Source: Candidatus Pelethousia sp. (GTDB taxonomy: Bacteria; Bacillota; Clostridia; Christensenellales; CAG-138). From it: a stretch of DNA of 64,000 nt. Shown here piece after piece: positions 3,153 through 19,009 of this stretch. Position 1 is the first letter of the stretch; every line of letters starts with the position of its first letter. The position numbers were made by a program, and so were the translations under genes. The DNA lies in contig JAYFNX010000011.1 in NCBI GenBank assembly GCA_034933245.1, positions 948 through 64,947 of the forward strand, given 5' to 3'. The notes below the pieces were generated by a model that worked only from the letters and a program-made list of their open reading frames with translations, had not been told where the DNA came from and searched no databases.

Positions 3153-4688
3153 TTGGAAACCCGAAAAGCAATCCAAATGTGTGGGATTACCAAAACCTTC
3201 GGCGAGGTAGTGGCCAACGACTGTGTCTGCCTGGATATTTATTCAGGCGAAATCTTGGCGCTCCTTGGTGAGAACGGCAGCGGTAAAACGACCCTCATGA
3301 ATATGCTGTCCGGTATCTATTTGCCGGAATGCGGCCAAATTTGGGTCAACGGCAACATGCGGACGATCTGCTCGCCCAAAGATGCGTTTGACCTTGGTAT
3401 CGGTATGATTCATCAACACTTTAAATTGGTGGATGTGCTCACCGCCGTTGAAAACATCGTGCTGGGACTCAATGAGAACAAGTTGATTGACCTCAAAAAT
3501 GTGCGTACCCAGGTAAAAGCAATATGTGACCGGTATGGCTTCATTGTGGAGCCTGATAAGAAGGTCTATGATATGTCCGTTTCGGAAAAGCAAACCTTGG
3601 AAATCGTTAAGGTTTTGTACCGGGGCGCCGACATTCTGATTTTGGACGAACCCACGGCCGTGCTTACGCCGCAGGAAACGGCAAAGCTCTTCGCCGTGAT
3701 GCGAAATATGAAGGCCGATGGCAAATCCATCGTGATTATCACCCATAAGCTCCACGAGGTTATGGAGATTTCAGACAGGGTAGCAGTTTTGCGCCGGGGC
3801 AAATACATCGGCGATATCGCTACAAAGGATACGGACCCGCAGCAGCTTACAGACATGATGGTAGGCCGGGCGGTCTCCCTAAACATCGACAGGCCGGAAC
3901 CCCAATCCCCCGCGGAGCGCCTGGTGGTGGAGAATCTTACCGTTCTGGATTCGGATGGGATCAAACGGTTGGACGAAGTTTCCTTTACCGCCTATAGCGG
4001 AGAAATTTTGGGCATAGCCGGTATTACCGGAAGCGGCCAGCGAGAACTGCTGGAGGCCATTGCCGGGCTGCAGCGTATCGAGCCGGGCAGCTCCATTCGT
4101 TTCATCCCGCCGGCAGGGCAGGAAGTGGATTTGGTGGGAAAATCCCCATTGGATATCTATAAGCTGGGCGTGGGCTTGGCCTTTGTGCCCGAGGACCGTT
4201 TCGGCATGGGCTTGGTAGGCTCCATGGATTTGGCGGATAATGTGATGCTTCGAAGCTATAAGAATGGAAAGTCCGCTTTTACAGATAGAAAAAGCCCCAG
4301 GGCTTTGGCTCAGAAGATCGTAGATGATCTGGAGGTGGTAACGCCTAGCCTCAACATTCCTTTGCGCCGTCTTTCCGGCGGAAACGTGCAAAAGGTATTG
4401 GTGGGCCGGGAGATCGCTGGGAAACCCTCCCTGCTGATGACGGCCTATGCGGTGCGCGGGCTGGACATTAACACGTCATACACCATCTACCATCTTTTGA
4501 ATGAGCAAAAGGAGCACGGGGCTTCGGTGATGTTTGTTGGCGAAGATCTGGACGTGCTGCTGGAGCTCTGCGACCGGATATTGGTGCTGTGCGCCGGAAA
4601 AGTGAGCGGCATTGTGGAGGGTCGTAAGGCCAAAAAGGAAGAGGTCGGCCTGCTGATGACACACCTTGGAGAGGAGGCAAAGGCATGA
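3153..4688 (+). CDS. ABC transporter ATP-binding protein with two ABC domains (BMP/nucleoside-sugar type)
   Basis: Walker A GENGSGKT and a second P-loop GITGSGQ, plus signature LSGGNVQK. TTG start at 3153 with AAAGGA 8 nt upstream. An alternative ATG lies at 3177. Confidence 0.88.
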   Translation: METRKAIQMCGITKTFGEVVANDCVCLDIYSGEILALLGENGSGKTTLMNMLSGIYLPECGQIWVNGNMRTICSPKDAFDLGIGMIHQHFKLVDVLTAVENIVLGLNENKLIDLKNVRTQVKAICDRYGFIVEPDKKVYDMSVSEKQTLEIVKVLYRGADILILDEPTAVLTPQETAKLFAVMRNMKADGKSIVIITHKLHEVMEISDRVAVLRRGKYIGDIATKDTDPQQLTDMMVGRAVSLNIDRPEPQSPAERLVVENLTVLDSDGIKRLDEVSFTAYSGEILGIAGITGSGQRELLEAIAGLQRIEPGSSIRFIPPAGQEVDLVGKSPLDIYKLGVGLAFVPEDRFGMGLVGSMDLADNVMLRSYKNGKSAFTDRKSPRALAQKIVDDLEVVTPSLNIPLRRLSGGNVQKVLVGREIAGKPSLLMTAYAVRGLDINTSYTIYHLLNEQKEHGASVMFVGEDLDVLLELCDRILVLCAGKVSGIVEGRKAKKEEVGLLMTHLGEEAKA

Positions 4689-5794: not shown

Positions 5795-6774
5795 CCCAGC
5801 TTATATCCCTTTTTCAAGCCGGCATCATGTTCGGCACCGTGATTCTCTTCGGAGCTACAGGCGAGATCCTAGCCGAAAAATCCGGCAACCTCAACCTTGG
5901 TGTTCCCGGCATTATGTACTTGGGCGGCATCATGGGTTTGATGGGCGTATTCTTCTATGAAATGAACAACCCCGAACCCAATAAGATGATTTGCATCCTG
6001 ATTGCCCTCGCCTGTGCCTTTTTGGCCTCTGTTATGGGCGGGCTTATCTATAGCGTGCTTACCATCAGCCTGCGGGCCAACCAGAATGTGACGGGCTTAA
6101 CCCTTACCATTTTTGCCAGCGGGTTCTCGAATTTCTTCGGCGGCTCCCTAAACAAACTGGCAGGCGGTGTAGGCCAAATTTCGGTTTCGGTCGCAAGTGC
6201 CGCTTTCCGTGCTAGCCTCCCCTTTGCGCAGGATCTTCCTCCGGCCTTAAGCATGCTCTTTGGCTATGGCTTTATGGTTTACTTGGCGGTGGTAATGGCA
6301 TTCGTTCTCAATTGGTTTATCAACCGCACCAGCGTGGGATTGAACCTGCGGGCTGTGGGCGAAAACCCGGCTACGGCGGATGCGGCTGGCATTAATGTGA
6401 CCAAATATAAATATCTAGCCACCTGCATCGGGGCGGGTATTTCCGGCCTGGGCGGTCTCTATTACGTGATGGACTATACTAAGGGCACTTGGGATAGCGA
6501 TGGCGGCATTGAGCGGTTGGGCTGGCTGGCCGTAGCGCTGGTTATTTTTTCCAGCTGGAAGCCTAAACGCGGCATTTGGGGCGCATACCTGTTCGGCATG
6601 CTCTCTTGGCTCTATTTCTACCTGCCCGGCCTTACACGGCGGTCCATGGAGTTGTTTAAGATGCTGCCCTATCTGGTTACCGTCATAGTCCTGGTGGTGG
6701 TCTCCCTACGCCGCAGCCGGGAGAATCAACCGCCTGCCGGACTAGGCTTGCCGTACTTCCGCGAAGAAAGATAA
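5791..6774 (+). CDS. ABC transporter permease
   Basis: 327-aa polytopic membrane ORF with a 4-nt overlap with the preceding permease. Confidence 0.85.
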   Translation: MTQLISLFQAGIMFGTVILFGATGEILAEKSGNLNLGVPGIMYLGGIMGLMGVFFYEMNNPEPNKMICILIALACAFLASVMGGLIYSVLTISLRANQNVTGLTLTIFASGFSNFFGGSLNKLAGGVGQISVSVASAAFRASLPFAQDLPPALSMLFGYGFMVYLAVVMAFVLNWFINRTSVGLNLRAVGENPATADAAGINVTKYKYLATCIGAGISGLGGLYYVMDYTKGTWDSDGGIERLGWLAVALVIFSSWKPKRGIWGAYLFGMLSWLYFYLPGLTRRSMELFKMLPYLVTVIVLVVVSLRRSRENQPPAGLGLPYFREER

Positions 6775-6838
6775 CGGACCGGAGGTTGTGCGACTCCACA
6801 AATAACCATCTCTCTTTTCGCAACCATCTGTAAACATG

Positions 6839-6878
6839 AACCGGCCCGTATATGGTAGCATATGCGGGCCGGTTTTTT
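6839..6878 (+). terminator. Rho-independent terminator of the BMP ABC operon
   Basis: aaccggcccg ... cgggccggtt followed by tttttt. Confidence 0.8.
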
Positions 6879-6903
6879 ACAACTTTTGCGCCATATATCA
6901 GGC

Positions 6904-6938
6904 TATAAAAAGGGAGCGCCTTATCAAAGCGCTCCTTC
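6904..6938 (-). terminator. Rho-independent terminator of serC-serA
   Basis: On the minus strand, AAGGAGCGC-loop-GCGCTCCCT followed by TTTTTAT. Confidence 0.7.
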
Positions 6939-6961
6939 TTAATTGGTAAGAGACGGGGATG

Positions 6962-7870
6962 TTATTTGCCAAACCCTTGGATGATATCCACAATTTCCGC
7001 ACCAATGCGTTTCTGAGCCTCCACGGTGGCAGCGCCAATGTGGGGGGTGCAGGAAACGGCGGGATGGGAATAAAGCGCCTTATTGGTGGCGGGTTCGTCC
7101 GCATATACATCCAGGCCGGCGGCACGGATCTTACCGCTGTTCAGCGCATCCAGCACAGCCGCTTCGTCCACGTTGTTGCCGCGGCTGGTGTTGATGAATA
7201 CCACGCCATCCTTCATTTTTGCGATGTTGTCCGCGTTGATAAGGGGTTTGCCATCAATGGCCGGAGTATGGAGAGAGATAAAATCCGCCTTGGCGAGGAG
7301 CTCGTCCATCTCCACATAGTGCATGGTGTCGCACTCCAAACCGTCAAAATGGAAGATATCGTAGGCGAGAACTTGCATACCGAGACCCTGGGCCATCTTA
7401 CCCAACGCCTGACCAATGCGACCATAACCGATTACGCCCAGTGTTTTGCCGCCAATTTCAATGCCCTTGCCGTAAGCCTTCTTCTCCCATTTATCCTCCC
7501 GCATGGTATGGCCGGCAATAGAGATATACCGGGCGCAGGAGAACATGTGGGCCATAGCCAGTTCGGCTACAGACTCGCTGCTGGCCTTGGGGGTATTCTT
7601 TACGGTGATGCCGTTCTTTTCGGCATACTGCACGTCGATATTATCCACACCTACGCCACCGCGAATGATAAGCTTCAGCTTGCCACCCTTGGCTTCATCA
7701 ATGTGCTTGGCGCGCACCTTGGTGGCGGAACGCACCACGCATACGTCGAATTCACGAAGGGCAGCGCCCAGCGCATCGGGCTCGAAGAACTTTTCTACAA
7801 CATCATGACCATTGGCTTTAAGTTGGGCTAGGGCGCTTTTATCCATACCGTCGGTTACGAGAATACGCAT
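6962..7870 (-). CDS. serA: D-3-phosphoglycerate dehydrogenase (short form, D-2-hydroxyacid dehydrogenase family)
   Basis: 302 aa with NAD motif GVIGYGRIGQ and the catalytic R/E/H pattern of the family. It lies directly downstream of serC. Confidence 0.8.
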   Translation of the reverse strand: MRILVTDGMDKSALAQLKANGHDVVEKFFEPDALGAALREFDVCVVRSATKVRAKHIDEAKGGKLKLIIRGGVGVDNIDVQYAEKNGITVKNTPKASSESVAELAMAHMFSCARYISIAGHTMREDKWEKKAYGKGIEIGGKTLGVIGYGRIGQALGKMAQGLGMQVLAYDIFHFDGLECDTMHYVEMDELLAKADFISLHTPAIDGKPLINADNIAKMKDGVVFINTSRGNNVDEAAVLDALNSGKIRAAGLDVYADEPATNKALYSHPAVSCTPHIGAATVEAQKRIGAEIVDIIQGFGK

Positions 7871-7884
7871 TCGTTTGAACCTCC

Positions 7885-8973
7885 TTATTTATGCTCTGCT
7901 TCGAATTTTTTCAGGAATGCTACCAGGGCTTCTACGCCGTCCTTGGGCATGGCGTTGTAAACGGAGGCACGCAGGCCGCCGACGCTCTTATGGCCCTTCA
8001 GGTTGTCATAACCGGCAGCCTTGGTAGCGGCTACGACTTCGGCATCCAGTTCCTTGCTCTCGGTCACAAAGGGGATGTTCATCAAGGAACGGTATTCCTT
8101 ATCCACCGTGCCGCTGAACATCTTGGAGCTATCCAGAAAATCGTACATGACCTTTGCCTTTTCTTGGTTGCGCTTAGCCATGGCTTCAAGGCCGCCAATG
8201 CTCTTGAGGTATTTGAATACCTTGCCGCACACGTAGATGCACCAGCAATTGGGGGTGTTGTACATGGAGCCATTGTTGGCATGGGTGTCATACCGCATAT
8301 AGATGGGCATATGCCCGTCCAGATCGGTGCGGATCAGATCCTCGCGGATGATGGCGATAACCATGCCGGCGGGGCCAATATTCTTTTGTACGCCGCCGTA
8401 GATAAGGCCGTAATCGCTTACATTGCAGGGCTTAGAAAGGAACATGGAGGATTGGTCGGACACAAGAACTTTGCCCTTGGTGTTTGGCAGGTTGCGGTAG
8501 GTTGTGCCGTGGATGGTCTCATTCTCGCACATGTAGACATAGTCCGCATCCGGGCTGATAGGCAGATCGGAGAGATCGGGAATATAGCTGTAGTTCCGAT
8601 CCTCGCTGGTGGCAACCAGGTTGATCTTACCGAATTTCTTGGCTTCTGTGTAAGCTTTTTTGCTCCAAGCGCCTGTTACGATATAGTCCGCCACGCCGTT
8701 TTTCATCAGGTTCATGGGGATCATGGCAAATTGCAGGGTTGCGCCGCCCTGAATAAAAAGCACCTTGTAATTATTGGGAATGCCCATCAGCTCGCGCAGA
8801 TCCGCCTCAGCCTCATCGATGATGGTTTGGAAAACCTTGGAGCGGTGGCTCATTTCCATAACACTCATACCGGAGCCATGATAATTAAGCACTTCGGCGG
8901 CGATTTCTTCGAGGACCGGTTCAGGTAGCATGCTGGGGCCAGCGGAGAAGTTGTAGATACGATCATACTTCAT
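7885..8973 (-). CDS. serC: Phosphoserine aminotransferase
   Basis: 362 aa with the N-terminal YNFSAGPSMLP motif and class-V aminotransferase core. AAGGAG RBS is upstream. Confidence 0.9.
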   Translation of the reverse strand: MKYDRIYNFSAGPSMLPEPVLEEIAAEVLNYHGSGMSVMEMSHRSKVFQTIIDEAEADLRELMGIPNNYKVLFIQGGATLQFAMIPMNLMKNGVADYIVTGAWSKKAYTEAKKFGKINLVATSEDRNYSYIPDLSDLPISPDADYVYMCENETIHGTTYRNLPNTKGKVLVSDQSSMFLSKPCNVSDYGLIYGGVQKNIGPAGMVIAIIREDLIRTDLDGHMPIYMRYDTHANNGSMYNTPNCWCIYVCGKVFKYLKSIGGLEAMAKRNQEKAKVMYDFLDSSKMFSGTVDKEYRSLMNIPFVTESKELDAEVVAATKAAGYDNLKGHKSVGGLRASVYNAMPKDGVEALVAFLKKFEAEHK

Positions 8974-15151: not shown

Positions 15152-15655
15152 TTATTTCTCGCTGCTGCCAAGTTTTCCTCCGCCGCGCTCCGAGGCCATT
15201 GCGCAAAGGGCGTCGTAGGAAACCTCCCGCACTTCCGTTTTGGGCACGGGCAGAAGCACCATCTGGGCAATGGCTTTTTCCGCAGGATATAAAAGGCAGG
15301 CACCCGCGTCCACCTCGTCCGCCAAGCGTTTCCTGGCAGCAGGCTTGGCGATATACAGGGGTAGGTTGTTATGGTTGGTAACGGGAATAAACCACTCTCC
15401 CCGGTATCCGCTATCAATCACCCCACAGCGCTGGCCAATGCCTTGGGTTCCGGATGAACCACGCTCATGAATTTGAAAATAATAATCCGGCGAGCAGGCG
15501 CTTGCAATGCCGGTAGGCAGGGCGCGTGTTTCATGCGGGTCCAAGCGGAGCGCATCGTCCTCCAGGCGGATGTAGATATCATACCCCGCATCTTCCGCCC
15601 GTTTAGAAGGAAGAACGGCATCCGGCCGAAGTTTGGAAAAATAAAGGGTTTCCAT
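15152..15655 (-). CDS. dut: dUTPase module; may also be translated on its own from an internal start
   Basis: All five dUTPase motifs are present (AGYDIY, ERGSSG, GVIDSGYRGE, IAQMVL, RGGGKLGSS). The ATG at 15655 is preceded by AAGGAGG with a 5-nt spacer, but no stop codon separates it from the upstream XdhC frame. Confidence 0.6.
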   Translation of the reverse strand: METLYFSKLRPDAVLPSKRAEDAGYDIYIRLEDDALRLDPHETRALPTGIASACSPDYYFQIHERGSSGTQGIGQRCGVIDSGYRGEWFIPVTNHNNLPLYIAKPAARKRLADEVDAGACLLYPAEKAIAQMVLLPVPKTEVREVSYDALCAMASERGGGKLGSSEK

Positions 15656-16690
15656 AGGGCCTCCTTGTTTAAGATGGGTTTCAAATAGGACTTGCCCGGC
15701 CCGGTGTGCAATGAGCTCGGCAGCAATGCTGATGGCAATTTCCGCAGGGGTTTCCGCCAGGATAGGCAGGCCGATTGGGTTGTGAATGCGGCCAATGTCC
15801 CCTTCGGAGAAGCCGGCAGCCAAAAGCGCTGCACGAGTAGCGGCCATTCTGGAACGGCTACCGATGAGCCCGATGTACTGGGCGGGTGAGCGAAGGGATT
15901 GAGCAAGAACCGCGTGGTCCGCCGCATGCCCCCGCGTCATGATGACGATAGAATCCTGGGGCCGTAGGCGCAGCGTTTGTTCAAAAGAGGAAAAATCCCC
16001 CAAAAGAACCTTGGTTGCGCAGGGAAAGAGACGCTTTTGGGCAAACGCGGGCCTGTCCTCAAAAACAACGGGACGGAACTCCAAATGCGCCAATACGCGA
16101 ACGAGCTCTCGCGCAATATGCCCGCCGCCGAAAATATATACGTACCCCGAGCGAACCAGCGGGTTAAGAAAGAAGAAGGAATCGCTTTGTGTTTCCCAAA
16201 GCAACGGTGCCCTGCATGCAAGGGATTCCAATACAACCGGCAAGGGGTCGCCAAAGCGCAGTTGACCGTCCATTCCATATAGCCCCGCACGCCAGGAATC
16301 TCCAGGGCCAGCCTGTAAAGCCAGCCAAACATCCGCATCGTCCACAAGCGCAGAGGCTATCGCTTCAAAGAAAGGCGCTCGACTGGGCGCGCAATGCTGA
16401 AAGAAAATCCATACGCACCCCATATCCGGGGAAGAACCGCCCGCTGGGGGAGAGACGGAGAAGGAGCCGATAAAGGAGCGCCGCACCGCAAGGGCTTCCC
16501 TAGCTTTCTCCCCTGCCAAATGCTCCATAACGCCCCCGCCGATGGTGCCCACCGCTTCCCCGTTTTGCAGCAGAGCCATCATCGCCCCCGGGCCTCTTGG
16601 AACGGAGCCCTGGCTTTTTACCACGGTGCACAAAAGGGCCTCCCGGTCGGCCACAAGCTCTGCGGCCAGGGTTTGAAACAGCTTTTGCAT
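15152..16690 (-). CDS. XdhC/YqeB-like molybdenum-hydroxylase maturation protein fused in frame to dUTPase
   Basis: The N-terminal half has XdhC/CoxI motifs (VVKSQGSVPRGPGAMM, GTIGGG) and the XdhC Rossmann domain (YIFGGGHIAREL). The C-terminal 167 aa is the dUTPase. ATG at 16690 with GGGGAGG 5 nt upstream. The GTG at 16696 is too close to the SD. Confidence 0.8.
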   Translation of the reverse strand: MQKLFQTLAAELVADREALLCTVVKSQGSVPRGPGAMMALLQNGEAVGTIGGGVMEHLAGEKAREALAVRRSFIGSFSVSPPAGGSSPDMGCVWIFFQHCAPSRAPFFEAIASALVDDADVWLALQAGPGDSWRAGLYGMDGQLRFGDPLPVVLESLACRAPLLWETQSDSFFFLNPLVRSGYVYIFGGGHIARELVRVLAHLEFRPVVFEDRPAFAQKRLFPCATKVLLGDFSSFEQTLRLRPQDSIVIMTRGHAADHAVLAQSLRSPAQYIGLIGSRSRMAATRAALLAAGFSEGDIGRIHNPIGLPILAETPAEIAISIAAELIAHRAGQVLFETHLKQGGPMETLYFSKLRPDAVLPSKRAEDAGYDIYIRLEDDALRLDPHETRALPTGIASACSPDYYFQIHERGSSGTQGIGQRCGVIDSGYRGEWFIPVTNHNNLPLYIAKPAARKRLADEVDAGACLLYPAEKAIAQMVLLPVPKTEVREVSYDALCAMASERGGGKLGSSEK

Positions 16691-16946
16691 GCACACCTCC
16701 CCAAACGATTGCTTCTCCTATCATAGCACGAGGAAAAGAATTCGGGAAGGGACGCCGTAACCAGGGGTCCGCAACCAAAAGAATGGCTTATTGGAAGGGG
16801 TGCTATGAATATAAAAATACCGGCGCGAAAAACAGGGGCACAACTTTCCTTCCCGCTGCGATTACATGGCCCATTCCGCTTCGCAAACGGAACTGGAAAA
16901 AAGCAAACATGGTTTTAGGCGCTCCGCACCTGCGACCACCCTTTGC

Positions 16947-17857: not shown

Positions 17858-18904
17858 TTATTTCACCCAGATAGTCGCCTCGCCTTGGGGAACGGCATGG
17901 CCGATAATCCGGCTCCAATCATTCTGCTCACCTAAAGCGGAAAGGAGACGGTCCGCATCCGATTCCGCAACGCTAATGAGCAGCCCGCCGGCAGTCTGCG
18001 GATCAAACATGAGATCCTGCAGGGCTAGCGGAACGGTTCCTTCAAAGCGAACTTTCTCTTCCATATGGCTGCGGTTACGGTACGCGCCTGCGGGGATAAT
18101 GCCCTCTTGCGCGAAATTCAGGGCATTTGGCATAAGCGGCAGATTTTCCGCCTGCAGGCATATGCTGACGCCGCTGGCCTGCGCCAATTCCTTTGCATGG
18201 CCTAAGAGGCCGAAGCCCGTGATATCCGTGCAGCCATGAACAGACAGCCCCGCCATGGCCTGCTGGGCGCCTGCGCTCAAGGTTGTCATAACCCGGATCA
18301 AAAACGCTTGTTCCGTTTCATCCAGCAAATCCGCTTTCGCTGCGGTAGTCAGGATGCCGCTTCCCAAAGGTTTGGTTAACACCAGCACATCGCCCGGGCG
18401 GGCCCCACTGTTGGCAAGAATCCGATCCGGATGGACAAACCCTGTCACAGAAAGGCCGTATTTCGGTTCCTTATCCTCGATGGTATGGCCGCCGCATAAG
18501 CAAGCGCCCGCCTCCGCCACCTTGCTGGCCCCACCTTCCAAAATGGCGCGAACATCCCGAGGCGGAAGCTTGTCCGAAGGGAAACAGAACAAATTTAACG
18601 CCAGCTTTGGGATGCCTCCCATGGCGTAAATATCGCTTAAAGCATTGGAAGCCGCTACCTGGCCAAAGGAATAAGGATCATCCACCATAGGCGGAAACAA
18701 ATCCACTGTTTGGATGAGAGCGAGATCATCGCTCACTCGATATACGGCTGCATCGTCGCTGGTTTCCATCCCCACCAGCAGGTTGGGATCGGAAATCCGG
18801 GGCAGCCCGGTTAGCATATTCTCTAGGACGCCCGGCCCTATTTTGGCAGCTCAGCCGCCACAAGAGGTCATTTTGGAGAGGTAAATCTTTTCTCCGCTAG
18901 ACAT
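17858..18904 (-). CDS. selD: Selenide, water dikinase (selenophosphate synthetase), Sec-containing form
   Basis: The ORF track begins at 18817. Upstream in frame it reads MSSGEKIYLSKMTSCGG-UGA-AAKIGPGVLEN, which is the SelD N-terminal loop with UGA at the catalytic Cys/Sec position. AAGGAGGG lies 7 nt before the ATG at 18904. Confidence 0.9.
18851..18853 (-). other. In-frame UGA selenocysteine codon of selD
   Basis: TGA is read on the minus strand, three codons before the conserved Lys (U-A-A-K versus C-G-C-K in E. coli SelD). Confidence 0.85.
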
Positions 18905-18938
18905 GAAGGTTCCCTCCTTTCACCAGTTCCTTAATTTG

Positions 18939-18972: not shown

Positions 18973-19009
18973 ATAAACAACAAATCGGGCGGACAAGATG
19001 TCCGCCCGA
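18973..19009 (-). terminator. Rho-independent terminator of the yedE-tusA-DUF3343 operon
   Basis: On the minus strand, TCGGGCGGACA-TCT-TGTCCGCCCGA followed by TTTGTTGTTTAT. Confidence 0.75.

Follow-up and report, generated by a model that had tools for sequence, protein, structure and literature searches.

The minus strand of the window, by which we mean the whole 64,000-nt stretch of Candidatus Pelethousia sp. DNA that was analyzed, carries a selD gene whose reading frame contains a UGA codon close to its 5′ end. The assembly from which the window is taken (G000; 2.51 Mb in 65 contigs, 98.76% complete) yields none of the genes by which such a codon could be decoded as selenocysteine (Sec). 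The question raised by this locus is whether the UGA is a Sec codon and, if so, how its decoding can be squared with the gene content of the assembly. Read by hand on the minus strand, the sequence runs from an ATG at 18904-18902 through MSSGEKIYLSKMTSCGG to a TGA at 18853-18851, and from there through AAKIGPGVLEN to a Met codon at 18817-18815 (the coordinates of all features are collected in Table 1). The selD frame is open from the ATG at 18904 to a TAA at 17860-17858, and the TGA at codon 18 is the only one in frame. The table-11 open reading frame (ORF) list gives only 17858 to 18817 (319 aa) at this gene. An in-frame UGA missed by the ORF track was the central claim of the initial annotation, and both its coordinates and its hand translation proved to be exact.

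Table 1. Positions of the selD features in the window and of the other UGA-containing genes of the source assembly
Feature	Position	Strand	Evidence or remark
Full-length selD coding sequence, 348 codons with predicted Sec18, plus TAA stop	17858..18904	minus	TIGR00476, AIRS/AIRS_C, and 3U0O match
True start codon, ATG	18902..18904	minus	Equivalent Met opens all orthologs
Shine-Dalgarno sequence AAGGAGGG, 7 nt before ATG	18912..18919	minus	Read from sequence
In-frame UGA, predicted Sec18, equivalent to E. coli Cys17	18851..18853	minus	Codon alignments
Lys21 codon, counterpart of E. coli SelD Lys20	18842..18844	minus	Alignment to 3U0O
Internal Met30, false start of stop-to-stop ORF callers (319-aa product)	18815..18817	minus	Table-11 ORF list
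Candidate SECIS apical hairpin, UAGGGC-CGGGC-GUCCUA	18824..18840	minus	Stem 10 nt and loop 16 nt after UGA
Extended consensus stem-loop, lower helices enclosing UGA	18801..18859	minus	RNAalifold
Intrinsic terminator of the upstream yedE-tusA-Se/S-carrier unit, separating that unit from selD	18985..19009	minus	Terminator scan
grdA, ECFV-U-TAAGAMDLENQ	L060:959-1429 (G000 C42)		In-frame UGA
Second grdA	L062:5954-6424 (G000 C29)	minus	In-frame UGA
grdB-type gene, ST-U-GTCTRCGATM	L062 about 3168-4478 (G000 C29)	minus	In-frame UGA

By its profile matches, the window gene is a SelD equivalog. The read-through product scores 393 bits against TIGR00476 (cutoff of 125), with a match that begins at residue 9, upstream of the UGA, and 343.3 bits against NF002098 (cutoff of 299). 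The N- and C-terminal AIRS domains of SelD, which have a PurM-like fold, are recovered by PF00586 (89.9 bits) and PF02769 (69.2 bits), respectively. A phmmer comparison with E. coli SelD (3U0O) gives an E value of 6.5e-75 and places U18 on Cys17 and K21 on Lys20. This alignment agrees with the earlier proposal that the UGA occupies the Cys17 position, three codons before the essential Lys. Both Cys17 and Lys20 are known to be indispensable to the E. coli enzyme.

The position of the UGA is conserved among relatives of the source organism. Within a panel of 40 related genomes that includes 7 other species of the genus, selD carries exactly one in-frame TGA in 6 of the 7 congeneric species (78 to 83% amino acid identity) and in one genome of another family; the remaining congener and the rest of the family have a selD without an in-frame TGA. 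Codon-level extraction sets the TGA in register with the TGC or TGT of the Cys-type genes; an alignment of the extended N terminus to Sec- and Cys-type SelD proteins had been proposed as a check in the initial annotation. A single register is shared by 45 UGA-type and 22 Cys-type selD genes, and the coding sequence is conserved on both sides of the UGA. Of 400 genomes sampled evenly across the class, 67 have selD, and exactly one TGA occurs in most of the selD matches. The same TGA, followed by 33 identical nucleotides, recurs in four independent conspecific assemblies (99.0 to 99.9% nucleotide identity). Its presence in these four assemblies and in 6 of the 7 sister species shows that the TGA did not arise from a sequencing error. 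In the conspecific assembly GCA_009929065.1, NCBI calls a 348-residue product over exactly this coding sequence; the Logan gene calls for the conspecific selD give 319 residues.

The same comparison brought out some variation around the Sec position. In the genus, a Cys stands three residues before Sec (S-C-G-G-U, a CxxU motif; codons 15 to 17, window 18854-18862); the motif is S-S-G-U in most other Sec-type SelDs of the class and C-x-G-C (CxxC) in Cys-type relatives from the same family. Several genomes (G089, G141, and G337) hold two UGA-type selD copies. In two copies (G337:C163:648-1664 and G353:C48:6879-7838), an extra TAG or TAA occurs beside the TGA, and these may be pseudogenes.

A Sec-type selD implies that a Sec-decoding system is encoded elsewhere in the genome, as the initial annotation had pointed out. 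When G000 was searched for selA, selB, and selC, none was found, which is formally the outcome that the initial annotation had named as speaking against its own reading. No selA was detected with either TIGR00474 or PF03841. The best selB match reaches 184.7 bits (cutoff of 242.25), covers the GTPase domain only, and is EF-Tu-like, with no SelB winged-helix domain. Neither Rfam nor ARAGORN detected a tRNA-Sec in G000, and none of its 45 tRNAs has a UCA anticodon. One marginal Rfam match to tRNA-Sec, on contig C18 (47.9 bits), was rejected as an ordinary tRNA-Ser(UGA).

The relatives of G000 show where these genes would be expected. All 7 congeners have selA, and in 6 of the 7 a selB winged-helix domain adjoins it; selA is likewise present in every UGA-type selD genome of the 40-genome panel (n = 8) other than G000. 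The order selA, selB, tRNA-Sec is found in four congeners, and the tRNA-Sec was confirmed in three of the UGA-type congeners. In the UGA-type congeners G002, G005, and G006, the sel locus runs on into a grd operon that is syntenic with G000 contig C42; in G006, a selenium-associated LysR gene precedes selA, and grdE/G-type, grdB-type, and trxB genes follow the tRNA-Sec. Base 1 of C42 lies inside trxB, of which a 5′-open fragment encoding the C-terminal 170 aa remains, followed by trxA, grdA, grdC, and grdD. No foreign or insertion sequence is present at this contig end (C42:1-513, L060).

Contigs from the same species extend past this end. Contig L063 of GCA_009929065.1 was found through the exact sequence of the C42 thioredoxin; its positions 6646 to 8662 are 99.5% identical to C42:1-2018 (other congeners, about 80%). 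Upstream of this stretch, L063 carries trxB, grdB, grdE, grdX, a glycine riboswitch, tRNA-Sec (found by ARAGORN and, at 73.3 bits, by Rfam), selB, and part of selA. Two further contigs (99.9 to 100% identical) extend about 200 nt beyond base 1 of C42. Logan contig L133, from run SRR27243495, encodes LysR, a complete SelA, SelB, tRNA-SeC, GrdX, GrdE, and GrdB, and the same run also gives a 99.9%-identical selD contig. Exact-sequence look-ups of the 319-aa product, GrdC, and SelB returned nothing new. The predicted Sec-decoding genes are thus absent from the G000 assembly but present in the species, on L063 and L133. As an observation on the operon itself, the riboswitch of L063 (positions 2882 to 2982, 60.6 bits) has tRNA-Sec on one side and grdX on the other, so that the glycine reductase operon of this contig is probably induced by glycine.

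Because C42 breaks off within trxB, beside the expected sel locus, and because conspecific contigs carry selA, selB, and selC, we favor truncation: to judge from these contigs, the absence of selA, selB, and tRNA-Sec is very probably an assembly artifact. The data are best explained if G000 misses at least 9 kb, unassembled or unbinned, comprising the LysR gene, selA, selB, tRNA-Sec, the glycine riboswitch, grdX, grdE, grdB, and the 5′ half of trxB. A recent loss of selA, selB, and selC in this strain, after which the UGA would stop translation after 17 codons and selD and the grdA and grdB genes would be fresh relics, would also account for their absence from so complete an assembly. The far flank of the presumed gap, for which no other G000 contig provides an anchor (none in G000 matches L133 at high identity), fits such a loss as well. 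We nonetheless regard a recent loss as very unlikely, since C42 opens within trxB rather than at a foreign or insertion sequence and aligns from its first base to longer conspecific contigs, since all four UGA-bearing genes of G000 are intact, and since the sample with the 99.9%-identical selD also has the sel cluster. In addition, G000 lacks tRNA-Val(GAC) and tRNA-Gln(CUG), both neighbors of the sel cluster in two congeners, suggesting an unassembled region.

The remaining readings concern how, and from where, the frame is translated. Translation of the real product from the internal Met (18817), with the upstream frame serving as an untranslated leader, has in its favor the table-11 ORF and the identical report of the Logan gene callers, but we find it scarcely credible. 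Ahead of the internal ATG stands only 'CCTAGAGAAT', which offers no usable Shine-Dalgarno sequence, and the sequence agrees with the initial annotation that a strong one (AAGGAGGG) precedes the ATG at 18904 and that nothing comparable precedes 18817. Shine-Dalgarno sequences of the AGGAG type stand before the same start codon in 8 of 8 UGA-type orthologs checked. In all 21 orthologs examined, the start Met lies about 17 codons upstream of the UGA or Cys codon; none begins at the internal Met. Orthologs that consistently did so and lacked the glycine-rich loop were what the initial annotation had named as speaking against its reading. At the protein level, the 29 upstream codons are conserved between genera, with the SelD profile matched from position 2 onward, and a product begun at 18817 would lack the loop with the equivalents of Cys17 and Lys20. 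The 319-aa ORF is an artifact of stop-to-stop ORF calling. Equally improbable is a reading of the UGA as Cys, Trp, or Gly, by a variant code or by near-cognate read-through without Sec machinery, which would suit the lack of that machinery in the source assembly but is opposed by the lack of any UCA-anticodon tRNA, by the use of TGA as an ordinary stop in the genus (it ends the selD of two congeners), by the confinement of in-frame TGAs to canonical Sec positions of known selenoproteins, and by the selA genes that accompany UGA-type selD in the panel.

Apart from selD, G000 has three genes with a UGA at canonical Sec positions, namely, two grdA genes and one grdB-type gene (Table 1). The grdB-type gene on contig C29 contains a match to Rfam SECIS_4 (L062:3397-3434). 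A gene for a BCCT-type transporter adjoins it, pointing to a reductase of the betaine or sarcosine type. The genes yqeB and yqeC are adjacent on contig C34, and selU was not found in G000. An orphan UGA-type selD that would serve the YqeB/YqeC trait only, with no Sec machinery, was considered and dropped on the strength of the C42 synteny and the conspecific sel contigs.

A SECIS element within about 60 nt downstream of the UGA had also been predicted. For the 8 closest UGA-type selD genes, RNAalifold gives an apical hairpin with the consensus UAGGGC-CGGGC-GUCCUR, set on lower helices that enclose the UGA. All 4 conspecific assemblies share the apical hairpin unchanged. Across the 8 orthologs, 96% of cells in the consensus stem-loop are paired, compared to 38 to 57% when the partners are slid. 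Within the genus, covariation in the stem-loop was not significant (66 of 500 shuffles), and neither was synonymous-site constraint after the UGA (P of about 0.3 to 0.4). A hairpin does lie at the distance expected of a SECIS, and we describe the structure as a well-placed, conserved candidate for the selD SECIS.

A broader comparison was made between Sec- and Cys-type genes. Relative to dinucleotide shuffles, nucleotides +7 to +45 have a mean z score of −1.83 in 45 Sec-type genes versus +0.35 in 22 Cys-type genes, with an MWU P value of 8.5e-7 that overstates independence, as the selD sequences compared are related; in the control window of +46 to +90, the folding of the two types does not differ. 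Two hairpins underlie the +7 to +45 signal. The proximal one is present in most Sec-type genes, including the window selD. The distal one (GGCACAG-GUU-CUGUGCC, at +29 to +47) shows compensatory changes in other families and is absent in this genus. Taken alone, the proximal hairpin fails to set Sec-type genes apart from the Cys-type genes as a whole (P = 0.30), since GC-rich Cys-type genes encoding KVGAGVL form a hairpin at this place from their codons alone; the two types are separated only in the wider +7 to +45 window and in matched-peptide controls. Cys-type genes encoding K-I/L-G/S-P fold weakly (0 to −4 kcal/mol versus a mean of −5.4), and in the Cys-type congener L027, which encodes the identical AAKIGPGVL peptide, the stem is broken by two synonymous differences. 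This congener (G001:C23) has a Cys-type selD (TGC) yet has kept selA, selB, and tRNA-Sec. From its sequence, the L027 selD seems to have been converted from Sec to Cys, the two synonymous changes having done away with the proximal hairpin.

A scan of the selD UGA region with Rfam returned no family at gathering score and none at an E value of ≤10. The scan itself works, as RF01990 matches grdB-type genes, and the selD element thus lies outside the modeled families. With the distal hairpin absent in the genus, SelB would have to recognize the short proximal hairpin. We tentatively suggest, at somewhat less than even confidence, that the selD SECIS of the genus has been remodeled into a compact variant outside Rfam, in which SelB would recognize the proximal hairpin together with the lower helices that enclose the UGA. 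The distal hairpin, for its part, shows clear compensatory changes in L067 to L097, from other families of the class, such as GGCGCAG/CUGCGUC, GGCUCAG/CUGAGUC, and UGCUCAA/UUGAGCA. Rfam has no family for this hairpin, from which a covariance model of the selD SECIS could be built. A further local hairpin, UGGCGGC-UGA-GCUGCCA (window 18845-18861, minus strand), holds the UGA in a 3-nt loop and competes with the lower SECIS helix, GCUGCC recurring at +47 to +52. Its core, GGCGGC-UGA-GCUGCC, was rejected as an element in its own right; the Gly-Gly and Ala-Ala codons probably produce it incidentally, and the Ala codons, which make up its 3′ arm, vary freely among congeners.

We thus consider it highly probable that the window gene is a Sec-type selD, that its UGA is read as Sec with a downstream stem-loop, and that the sel genes of the assembly were lost to contig truncation. 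Translation would begin at the ATG at 18904, behind the strong Shine-Dalgarno sequence, and the ribosome would reach the UGA at codon 18. SelB with Sec-tRNA(Sec) would then bind the stem-loop, that is, the apical hairpin (18840-18824) and probably the UGA-enclosing lower helices, and Sec would be placed in the glycine-rich N-terminal loop (SCGG-U-AAK), at the site of the catalytic Cys17 of E. coli. The resulting selenophosphate would have two uses. The first would be the Sec of SelD itself, of the two GrdA proteins, and of one or more GrdB-type proteins, and the second would be the YqeB/YqeC selenium-dependent molybdenum hydroxylase trait.

The neighborhood of selD was also surveyed. Upstream lies a terminator-bounded unit encoding YedE-type (Sulf_transp), TusA, and Se/S-carrier proteins, and beyond it a divergent gene for a class-V aminotransferase/desulfurase. 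Downstream of selD is an XdhC-dUTPase fusion gene, a single 514-aa frame (window 15155-16696, minus strand) with XdhC_CoxI, XdhC_C, and dUTPase domains. The initial annotation had placed terminators on both sides of selD, of which the upstream one was called by the terminator scan and the downstream one was not, the latter being visible by eye as a stem at about 17818-17793 with a T-rich tail. The promoter assigned to selD itself (18967-18939; TTGTGC-N17-TACAAT) fails the scan criteria, with a −35 element that matches at 3 of 6 positions; an extended −10 element, TGn-TACAAT, can be seen by eye.

Sec-type selD genes are already known, and the window gene is a routine member of the family, annotated as such in GCA_009929065.1; the NCBI pipeline is therefore already right on the selD of this species. 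Stop-to-stop ORF tracks and Prodigal-type callers, on the other hand, cut the gene to 319 aa and lose the catalytic loop. The locus also counsels caution on absence calls in draft genomes, given that a 98.8%-complete assembly is without three Sec-machinery genes, with one contig cut beside them. A naive trait call would here produce the false paradox of a selenoprotein gene with no Sec decoding.

Compared to E. coli SelD (3U0O), the window product aligns over residues 6 to 339 with an identical loop register, but E. coli has GCGCK, with Cys, where the window gene has GUAAK, with Sec; as such, the E. coli gene needs no SECIS. The SECIS of E. coli fdhF is a minimal 17-nt upper stem-loop set 11 nt after the UGA. 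The selD candidate is likewise a 17-nt hairpin; it starts 10 nt after the UGA, its loop is rich in G, and its lower helices can enclose the UGA. It differs in sequence, in having no evident bulged U, and in matching no Rfam model. The SelD of the distant lineage Aquifex aeolicus (2YYE/2ZOD; E value of 1.1e-64) has the same SSG-C/U-AAK-VGPG loop, its SSGCAAKVGPG being matched by the window selD. The native A. aeolicus protein is of the Sec type and was crystallized as a Cys variant. Among the Clostridia, most sampled Sec-type SelDs have S-S-G-U in place of the C-G-G-U found here, and the second hairpin is missing here. The family and the site of the UGA in the N-terminal Gly-rich loop are the same, and neither difference is an essential one. 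Sec-type SelD is a very widespread bacterial selenoprotein, and Sec-containing SelD is listed for Clostridium difficile, C. perfringens, Thermoanaerobacter tengcongensis, and Moorella thermoacetica (PMC1794560). In a 2022 review, SelD, GrdB, and GrdA rank within the five selenoprotein families of widest distribution, and SelD with YqeB and YqeC is treated as the marker of the cofactor trait (PMC9312934). The selenoproteome of SelD, GrdA, and GrdB found in the present genome is also the one that Zhang et al. described, with GrdB-type proteins, for several Clostridia (PMC1794560).
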